Part shown: piece after piece, positions 13,001-16,000 of the stretch | Position numbering within the stretch: position 1 is the first letter of the stretch | Layout of the letters: each line of letters begins with the position of its first letter | NCBI RefSeq assembly: GCF_032062105.1 | Contig: NW_026928818.1 | Coordinates: 62,001 to 126,000 of the forward strand | Reading direction: 5' to 3' | Source of the DNA: Saccostrea cucullata | Taxonomy: Eukaryota | Length of the DNA: 64,000 bases | The notes under the pieces: generated by a model | The model's input: only the letters and a program-made list of their open reading frames with translations | What the model was told of the DNA's origin: nothing | The model's database searches: none | Translations under genes and position numbers: made by a program

Positions 13001-16000
13001 ATTCCAGTAAATAAAACATCTAAAGAAGAACATTTTTATTTTAAAGGAGAGTTGTATCTTGAGAACTATGCTTGTTAAACATCAAAATTTGGACATGTTT
13101 CCCCTAAGAAGTAGTTCTCCCTGTAGATTTTTAGGTCACAAGGTCAAAGGTCATATTATTCAAAAAAACCTATAGGAAGATGTCTGTTCAATATTTTGAG
13201 GATACCTTGTTTGGCAGTCATTAAACTTGGCACATTAGTTCCTTTTTAAGGAATTAATCCCTACTGAATTTAAGGTCACAAGAACAAAGGTCAAGGTCAA
13301 ATTATATAAGGAAGATATTGACCTTATCTTTAGAATTGTTTGTTTGATTGACCATAAACATGGTGCGCCGGTTTCTCCCTTGGGAAAAAATAACCCATGT
13401 TAAATTTTAGTTTACAAACTCAAAGATCAAAGGTAAACAACATGATTATTAGACACAGAGACTTTGTCAGCTCAGTTTCTTGAGATTTAGTTTCTTTTAA
13501 AACATCACTTTTTGTATACTGGTGTTCTATAAGATTTAGCAGTATATTATCCCTAATGATATTGAGTTTTGAAAGAGATCAAATTTAGTATTATATTTGC
13601 CCATAACTAGAAGATGAACAGCTATTTTCAATATCATAACAGACATTTGAAATTGAAAGTGTTTCCTATATAAAATTGCTTCATGGGGGCATATGTGTTT
13701 GTCAATCATTTCTTGTTTTGACATTCTAGAGCGAGCAAACAACTGGCCACCACTTCCCAAGTTTTGTCCTGTTGGACCCTGTTTCTACCAAGACTTCAAT
13801 GTAGATATTCCTATGGAATTCCAAAGGACAGTTAAAATTGTATATTATTTATGGTTATGTAAGTTGATTTCAGTGTGTTTATTTTTGGAATATTGTGATA
13901 AAAGCTGTTAGTATGAAAGAAATTATTAATTCTACCTGCTAAGGTATATGTACATTCATTGTTTTTTGTCTGTGAAAGGTAACATATTTTTTATTATGTT
14001 TCAGTTTACGTAATTGTTCTCTTTCTCAACATCTGGGCCAGTTTGGCGTTTTTCATTGCTGATCCTGATGGAGGAGCCACATTTGGCATGTCAATAGTGT
14101 GGTTCGTCCTGTTCACACCTTGTTCATTTATATGTTGGTATAGACCACTGTACAAAGCATTCAGGTAAGAATTGTTTACTTTTCCAAGATTATTCACACA
14201 TTCATATATTTTCCAAAAAAAAAAACAACAACAGAAATGCACATTCCATATTTCAAAAAGGACTTCTATAAAACTTTTTCTGTTACAAATTGTTTTACAA
14301 CATAAAATTTACAATATCAGAATTGATTTTTGGGGAATTGGGGTGATAGACATGCTTAGCATGAACTTCAAAGGTAGATTGTACGTGTATTAAGTGATCA
14401 ATATCTGGCAGGGGAATAAAGTTGATACACAATAACTTTGTGAGCTCAATATTGGGGTTAACTATGTTCACTGACACTAAAACCTGTTATTTTTGTTCCA
14501 TTTCATCAAAAAAAAAAAATAATAAATTGTGCAAATATCATGTAGAATGAAACAAGAAAACAAAAAATCTGTTTTCATAGCATTATACCTGTATTTGAAT
14601 GAAAAATTATGAAGTGTAGATATGAAGTAAAAAAGTTATGGAGTTAGTAAAAAAACATAATAAAATTTTCTTGTAAAAATGTCATGATATTAATGAAAAA
14701 AAAATGGTGGGGGGGGGGGGGAAGTATAAAATCTGAGTGATATCCATCCCTAGCATAGACCACATATTGTACCACATATACATGTACCACATTTTGGTAA
14801 AGGCATTTATCATTTTATATGTATTTTTGAAATTGATTTGTCTTCTAGTATGGGTTCAGTGATATAACTTATACAATGCAACACTCCAAAAATGTTTCAG
14901 TGTTGATGGCTTTAAATGTTTCTATATACAATATATCTTGCACTGCTGAAATCTGCATACTTTCCCAAATCCTTCCACCACAATTATCAATTTTTGTCAC
15001 AATTCATCGAAATACATGTAGCTGCACAATATGAAATCAAAGCATTAATTCTTTCTATCAGTTGTAACTTGGTATGTTTTTGAATTTTTAAGACGTTCAC
15101 TTTTCCAACTTGGATTTTTTTTTAGTTTGGATGCTAGGAAAGCATACTTTTAAATAAAAACTTGAATATTTTGATATACAAAATTATTTTTGATAATTAT
15201 TTTTTAATTATTGAAAAACGTTCTCTTTGGAATTTTGCTAAGGCTTTCATTCTGTTTTCCAGATCAGACAGTTCATTCAGCTTTTTTGTATTTTTCTTCA
15301 ATTTCTTCTTCCAAGCCATTTGTTGTGTAGTCATGTTAATAGGGATAACAGATTTCACAGTGTAAGTATTCCAATTCATCTGAAAGCTCTAGATCCTGCA
15401 CCCCATCTAGAACCACCCCCCCCCCCCCCATGGTGCAGGATCTAGGGAAAATACTGACCACCACAGTAACCCTTTGTCCTTTGTTTTTATTTTCAGAAGT
15501 GACAGCTCCTTCAACTTCTTTGTGTTTTTCTTTATATTTTTTTTCCAATTTATCTGTACGATAATTCAGTGTCTAGGAGTAACGGGCTACACAGTGTAAG
15601 TATGAGACTAGCATAGTGTTAAACACATTCAGGATTGTAATTTAATTTGAAAAAAGAGCAATGCAACTCTGAGGGTTTGTATTATTCCACAATAGGAATT
15701 CAAACTCCCGAATAAAAAAAAAAAACTGGTTGTTGATTGCTCTCAATAAGGAGTCCTAACTTTTATGAAATGATAAAAGAAATACAATATAAAACTAAAT
15801 GTGAACAACACCAGGGTCGAAGAGACTTCGGTGAGCATTGTCATTTGTTGCACATAGGTTTGTAATTTGGAAACTGTTATGAGTAAAAAAAAAAAATGTT
15901 CATTCTTCTAAATGTGAATATTGAGTGAGAGTCAGTATTTTTTCCCCTTATTAAAACATCAATGCATTTTTTAAATGAATTTTTATTTTATGATTATCAT

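Follow-up and report, generated by a model that had tools for sequence, protein, structure and literature searches.

An inverted repeat in the window (the whole stretch of 64,000 nucleotides of Saccostrea cucullata DNA that we analyzed) lies in the intron between two alternative exons, 7A and 7B, of an oyster SCAMP gene and, judging from matched changes in its arms, it is a genuine RNA structure under selection, situated at a pair of mutually exclusive exons. The position of the hairpin relative to the splicing signals suggests that it may well block 7A-to-7B splicing by steric exclusion produced by folding. The hairpin would form on the nascent RNA and bring the 7A donor and the branch point predicted for 7B to within about 46–48 unpaired bases of each other, a spacing that, together with the rigid helix, would be too tight for a spliceosome across the 7A-7B intron. 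Both signals would be left unpaired by the stem, with the 7A donor free for exon 8 and the 7B branch point free for exon 6, and some other factor would decide which of 7A and 7B is used.

Results

Sequence matches place the cluster in SCAMP, a membrane-trafficking gene of the oyster. Exon 6 (14005..14164; this and all exons and intron features below are on the + strand), located 5' of the cluster, encodes 52 amino acids that are 100% identical to named Saccostrea cucullata SCAMP1-like proteins. A search with a 381-nt region gave a single blast match. Exons 7A (15263..15361) and 7B (15497..15595) are both 99 nt long, share 63% amino acid identity and are separated by an intron of 135 nt. As adjacent homologues of equal length and phase they are duplicated exons, and the pair swaps the SCAMP segment that follows a conserved SDSS motif. 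With both exons included, the protein would gain an additional hydrophobic segment, which would likely upset its topology in the membrane. Downstream lies a second alternative pair, composed of exon 8A (16258..16399, 142 nt) and exon 8B (17377..17494, 118 nt). U2/U12 spliceosome incompatibility was rejected on the basis of the splice sites, as the donors of exons 6, 7A and 7B read GTAAG and the acceptors are of the pyrimidine-tract AG type; no U12-type sites, judged against the U12 consensus, were found flanking 7A or 7B.

Exons 7A and 7B are used mutually exclusively in the material covered here, where rare double forms could be missed. Among the matches listed, none of 47 named oyster isoforms (annotation models from five oyster groups) contained both exons, 45 contained one and 2 contained neither, in line with an earlier note on this DNA, which had taken 7A and 7B to be mutually exclusive. 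The two isoforms with neither are O. edulis X10 (P0014) and X9 (P0015), which skip both exon-7 copies in frame. Exon 7A is present in named isoforms, and ends of spliced junctions were found in 4 of 8 sequencing runs: 6-to-7B in X2, X3, X20 and X23, 7A-to-8B in X3 and X23, 7B-to-8B in X2, X3 and X23 and 7B-to-8A in X20. No 7A-7B joint was seen in these four runs, which is weak evidence since contigs drop rare isoforms. Outside oysters, Mytilus isoforms comprise two exon-7 variants, and in the records retrieved for scallops, clams and gastropods each species has a single variant. Counting against exclusion, one Pinctada gene model (P0034) joins both exon-7 copies.

The same note had argued that co-inclusion of 7A and 7B would stay in frame and escape NMD. 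This holds: exons 6, 7A, 7B, 8B and 9 joined in silico are free of early stops and open to the normal stop, which rules out NMD policing of the 7 pair. Therefore, the pair needs a mechanism other than NMD. Inclusion of both 8A and 8B shifts the frame.

The 8A/8B pair has two variants in scallops and Pomacea and at least three in Mytilus and Ruditapes. Within the 8A-8B intron, positions 17126-17152 (+) match the branch/pyrimidine block of 7B at 22 of 25 positions. It is the best look-alike in the window (score 33, against 27 for the next elsewhere), and the AG after it precedes the 8B acceptor by ~225 nt. From this block down to 8B, the sequence folds into a predicted long imperfect hairpin (z −1.82; 7 of 200 shuffles), and the block itself may be a distant 8B branch point, a cryptic acceptor or a duplication relic. 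A PPPY-containing coding segment is tandemly repeated at about 11157-11390 (+); the longest named Saccostrea isoforms carry 50 additional residues, which may represent read-through of both copies. In another animal SCAMP locus (L008) exon 6, not exon 7, is tandemly doubled (oriented positions ~584-787 and 1345-1521), and locus L059 contains two exon-8-like segments. A metagenome search with the exon-7 alignment gave 595 pattern matches, no one of which was confirmed. A DNA pattern search recovered 94 metagenome loci, all of which contained a single exon 7 and no tandem pair within the recovered DNA, and gave no matches in prokaryote genomes. A protein search with the sense read-through of the intron and 7B returned 2 matches, both to the exon part only.

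The 7A donor, GTAAGT, and the 25-nt linker ahead of the stem occupy positions 15362..15386. The perfect 14-bp inverted repeat that follows, previously placed at 15389-15402 and 15432-15445, was located by sequence exactly there, with its arms 29 nt apart, and its claimed extension by G-U and C-G pairs was recovered as 15388-15446 (U.G) and 15387-15447 (C-G) in the minimum free energy fold. The resulting stem of 16 bp consists of a 5' arm (15387..15402), a 29-nt loop carrying the motif CTAGAACCAC and a C-run (15403..15431) and a 3' arm (15432..15447). Its predicted stability of −33.7 kcal/mol (z −4.49) was equaled by none of 200 shuffles, and a perfect stem of at least 14 bp arose in 1 of 3,000 dinucleotide shuffles of the intron. 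All 16 pairs had a probability of at least 0.90 at 37 °C in three sequence contexts; the two outer pairs fell to 0.57–0.64 at 20 °C with the intron alone. Neither splice site is inside the stem. The 14-mer arm occurs only at these two sites in the 1.17-Gb assembly, and an Rfam search gave no match at E ≤ 1. Given these results and the single blast match, a mobile-element terminal repeat and a known RNA family were both rejected. Elsewhere in the window, other perfect inverted repeats of 16–47 bp with short spacers are found at 8746-8837, 40619-40768, 55101-55141 and 56891-56947, and these four are probably mobile-element remnants.

The intron was found with 7–9 substitutions in each of the closely related runs X1, X2, X3 and X4. 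Among the differences listed, 3 of the 32 arm positions were substituted and all three changes keep pairing: in the 5' arm, 15393 A>G retains it as G.U and 15396 C>T as U.G, and in the 3' arm 15446 G>A converts U.G into U-A. Under a simple substitution model, the chance of three out of three is 0.01–0.03. In run X4, changes at the loop edge add three predicted pairs, or four in all when the change at 15448 is included. The pyrimidine tract and AG acceptor of 7B (15472..15496) have no listed differences in X1, X2, X3 and X4, and run X21 (depth ~1–5) has no listed differences within the intron.

For other genera, we took advantage of spurious antisense open reading frames called across this intron in public oyster contigs. 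The introns described below were assembled by back-reading overlapping protein frames and are therefore composites, not sequenced records. The first frame was found with the window's own antisense frame, and more, in other frames, were collected by a second search and cluster look-ups. The Magallana-type halves showed no conflicts at one offset each across 2–3 reading frames (13–18 at other offsets), and the Crassostrea virginica-type pair showed 1 conflict at the chosen offset (10–16 at others). Types were assigned by exon match, with 0 of 28 conflicts between P0164 and M. gigas 7B and 0 of 33 between P0178 and C. virginica 7B; by 7A alone, Saccostrea, Ostrea and Magallana are indistinguishable. 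P0169, with a C. virginica-type 7B, was left out because by eye its 5' half misfits P0168, with bases apparently missing at the 7A end. Of the intron, P0167 covers no more than 3 codons, and P0172 and P0173 are clam-like single exons. The 7A segments of P0164 and P0168 imply a proline, as in the first Pinctada copy, at a site that is Thr/Ser in the named isoforms of Magallana and C. virginica; these segments may represent alleles or sister species.

The Magallana-type intron is 140 nt long with 5 ambiguous bases and its predicted stem, at the same place as that of the window, occupies nt 28-48/70-92 and comprises 21 bp interrupted by two bulges of one base each (mean z −5.2 and −5.4). Of the ten pairs shared with the window, three are changed on both sides (window/Magallana type): pair 4 from U-A to C-G, pair 7 from A-U to G-C and pair 10 from C-G to U-A. 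Run X1 carries the wobble intermediates G.U and U.G at pairs 7 and 10. Swapping arms between the window and the Magallana type reduced pairing to −7.8 and −10.2 kcal/mol, compared to −29.4 and −32.9 kcal/mol within each lineage. The loop motif and its C-richness are common to both. Residue-visible stem variants among Magallana-type records affect both bulge bases and one pair that stays paired; two single-contig records disturb the stem, P0161 by a substitution that breaks a pair and P0174 by a frameshift in the 3' arm. Further hairpins are predicted in this type, 9 bp over the donor and 11 bp over the branch/pyrimidine region, the latter in a weaker version also in X1. With single frames, the Magallana-type stem was not significant when its position was left free (321 and 67 of 600 shuffles) and modestly so when limited to the window's position (64 of 5,000 with Watson-Crick pairs, 355 of 5,000 with G.U). 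A single-frame guess of the inner helix differed from the multi-frame reading and was replaced by the latter.

The C. virginica-type intron is less resolved, with 33 of 131 bases ambiguous and the 5' arm read from one frame only. Random fillings were no better than shuffles (mean z −0.65), and codon-consistent arms set against the fixed 3' arm beat shuffled residues (1 and 2 of 150). The pairing includes a C.A mismatch that is fixed and may extend outward; this intron is compatible with a stem, at greater uncertainty than the Magallana type. Overall, the reconstructed introns indicate that matched changes have preserved the complementary arms in two or more genera of oysters. The compensatory changes that the earlier note had suggested looking for in other bivalves were thus found, in the three two-sided pairs of the Magallana type and in the arm changes of the related runs.

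Two branch-point candidates lie between the stem and the pyrimidine tract. The best U2 match, CTGAC (15454..15458; A15457, at −40 from the acceptor), is present in the window, X1, X2/X3 and X4 and absent from the Magallana- and C. virginica-type introns. The other, CAGTAACC (15464..15471), places A15469 at −28, 21 nt past the stem. In the Magallana type, CAGTGACC occurs at −27, likewise 21 nt past the stem, so that a branch-like TRAC motif is conserved in position (TAAC in the window, TGAC in the Magallana type). A branch motif at this position would also fit the C. virginica type, whose A is ambiguous. A second TGAC in the Magallana type, at −19, would give a donor-to-branch path of 56 nt. 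According to the accessible part of PMC7969005, ~90% of human branch points lie 19–37 nt from the acceptor, and the conserved motif falls at this usual position. Among 20 putative oyster acceptors, TRAY matches numbered 19 at −11 to −30 and 3 at −31 to −50, a weak prior given that some upstream bins hold 7–9 matches each. We therefore regard A15469 as the predicted branch point of 7B. As a guide to the lower limit of intron length, 7 of 11 myosin junctions gave candidate introns, the best-scoring of which measured 94–288 nt.

The spacing on both sides of the stem is nearly constant. The donor-to-stem linker measures 25 nt in the window, 27 nt in the Magallana type and 26 nt in the C. virginica type, and the distance from the stem to the end of the intron is 49, 48 and 48 nt respectively. 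Up to the branch motif, the linkers amount to 25+21, 27+21 and 26+22 nt, while stem length spans 16 to at least 21 bp. The candidate A's of the window are 96 and 108 linear nt from the donor, neither within the ~50 linear bases of linear steric interference. With the stem folded, the unpaired path before the A shortens to 25+9 nt for CTGAC or 25+21 nt for TAAC; the conserved TAAC/TGAC motif therefore gives a donor-to-branch path of 46–48 unpaired bases, compared to 108 linear bases in the window. The earlier estimate of 35–50 nt stands insofar as both motifs are present and the path matches; its lower end depends on CTGAC, which is not conserved, and the conserved motif gives the upper end.

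Discussion

Taken together, the stem, the exclusive use of the exons, the open frame of the double form and the covariation agree with the steric exclusion by RNA structure that the earlier note had put forward, apart from its CTGAC-based distance of 35 nt, and we infer steric exclusion from them. Since the stem masks neither signal, the 7A-7B product is unseen and the linkers vary within 2 nt, we read the hairpin as a lock on distance. Steric exclusion is the likeliest single reading, about which we are evenly poised. Vertebrate studies place the steric threshold for donor-to-branch distance at ~50 nt, as given in the accessible parts of PMC5740500 and PMC7969005. The 46–48 nt measured here, plus the width of the helix, are at this threshold and not clearly under it, and they exceed a yeast limit of 42 nt (accessible part of PMC12350175); both points count against the steric reading, as does the lack of conservation of the strongest U2 match. 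Conservation indicates function and not which one, the loop motif being conserved too.

Exons 2 and 3 of alpha-tropomyosin are said to be a pair with linear steric interference. Vertebrate OGDH exons 4a/4b are likewise duplicated and frame-preserving, with exclusion ascribed to a donor-to-branch distance under ~50 nt (PMC7969005, as far as accessible), and linear steric interference is also described for short intervening introns in C. elegans (PMC4165533, in the part available). In all three systems, as covered by these sources, the distance is short in the linear sequence, with either a branch point that is distant or an intron that is tiny. In contrast, the predicted branch point of oyster 7B has an ordinary position, −28, and is separated from the donor by 108 nt, and only folding would bring the two closer. 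The exon 17 cluster of Dscam may offer a closer parallel. This two-exon cluster is reportedly the subject of a 2013 paper by Yue et al. with steric hindrance and RNA secondary structures in its title; the steric part is said to be linear proximity, with the structures biasing choice, as opposed to the folded proximity proposed for the oyster.

RNA pairing at duplicated exons is known from human ATE1 7a/7b, where elements R1-R3-R4 act in the intron between the exons and disrupted pairing leads to double inclusion (PMC7797038), and from the docking-selector system of Dscam (PMC11802352, PMC6071210). In both, according to the parts of these papers at hand, one element has two alternative partners near acceptors. 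Unlike these, the oyster hairpin has both arms within one intron, lacks a comparable second partner and leaves the splice sites outside the stem; within introns 6–8 the best alternative partners of the arms reach −20.1 and −18.6 kcal/mol, compared to −31.5 kcal/mol for the local duplex. A 2026 preprint on mutually exclusive exons lists, in its accessible part, three linear mechanisms in addition to blockers and switches (bioRxiv 10.64898/2026.05.17.725762). The oyster arrangement is not described in the accessible portions of PMC4165533, PMC7404189, PMC2724269, PMC12962786, PMC10726166 and PMC13167188. Within the openly available main texts covered by our search, we found nothing on SCAMP exon pairs in molluscs, nor on steric exclusion by hairpin-shortened distance.

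Closest in geometry are the zipper stems of yeast introns such as RPS17B, which similarly shorten the effective distance between donor and branch point. By modelling, they begin no closer than 10 nt to the donor and end 20 nt or more before the branch point, with a total linker of 42–85 nt (PMC12350175, accessible part). The oyster linkers of 25+21 and 27+21 nt fall at the lower edge of this range; with CTGAC (25+9 nt), they fall outside it. Yeast zipper stems, as the available text has it, occur in introns that are spliced and are mostly helpful, whereas the oyster stem is found in an intron whose spliced product is unseen, and we infer that it combines zipper geometry with the opposite outcome. 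A purely zipper-like role, in which the stem would aid exon recognition or shorten the 6-to-7B and 7A-to-8 lariats while tissue-specific proteins enforce exclusion, draws on the same published limits and on some differences in 7A/7B use between runs, which contig depth cannot rank. We consider it unlikely, as a zipper should favor splicing of its own intron, yet the 7A-7B product was seen in neither the oyster isoforms nor the runs covered, and looping out ~60 nt is of little gain for lariats of 0.9–2 kb.

A rival that we regard as a real, if lesser, possibility is that the hairpin serves as a regulatory platform, either by presenting its C-rich loop to an RNA-binding protein or through neighboring hairpins that mask the donor or the pyrimidine tract, so that joining would be repressed, or the 7A/7B ratio set, by blocking and not by distance. 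The sharing of the CTAGAACCAC motif and C-run between Saccostrea and Magallana types is in its favor, and so are the donor and branch/pyrimidine hairpins predicted in the Magallana type, the weaker second one in X1 and the common occurrence of blocker structures at human mutually exclusive exons (bioRxiv 10.64898/2026.05.17.725762, accessible part). However, these additional hairpins vary between lineages with no compensatory change seen in them, A-rich/U-rich pairing arises easily, and the loop alone would leave the constancy of both linkers unexplained. A competing pairing has also to be weighed, as the C-rich loop could dock onto a G-run in intron 6 (14707-14721), looping out 7A and selecting 7B. 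This 15-bp G/C helix is the lowest-energy helix of the region (−38 kcal/mol), and the G-run is the only run of at least 10 G's on the + strand of the window. Against such a switch, which seems quite improbable, the pairing is between homopolymers of which the window holds seven (G or C runs of at least 10), the C-run is interrupted in X1–X4 and in the Magallana type, and neither arm showed a competing selector ahead of 7A. Least probable is a neutral origin of the inverted repeat, either by local duplication or as the remnant of a mobile element. The loop does repeat part of the 5' arm (TCTAGA..CC) and the window contains other perfect inverted repeats, but the arm is unique in the genome, and the two-sided compensatory changes, wobble intermediates and fixed spacing largely refute a neutral origin as far as covariation can tell.

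Returning to steric exclusion by folding, the locus bears on how mutually exclusive exons are recognized. In a human survey, as far as its accessible text goes, linear steric interference explained only 9% of mutually exclusive exon clusters and most were left without an assigned mechanism; that screen used linear donor-to-branch distances (PMC5740500). If a hairpin can create a short distance, then linear-distance screens miss a class, one that is easily searched for as a stem between donor and branch point that leaves about 45–50 unpaired bases. The locus is also a compact test, with 333 nt, natural compensatory variants and separable effects of pairing and linker length, and it probes the point at which a zipper stem ceases to help and starts to block. 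Somewhat more tentatively, a single local hairpin with linker lengths fixed in evolution could render an ordinary, spliceable 135-nt intron sterically unspliceable and yet keep both of its signals free for distant partners. If true, folded distance would enforce mutual exclusion in a way that differs from both linear steric interference and competing pairings, and the conserved 46–48 nt would be a natural measure of the spliceosome's lower spacing limit in molluscs.
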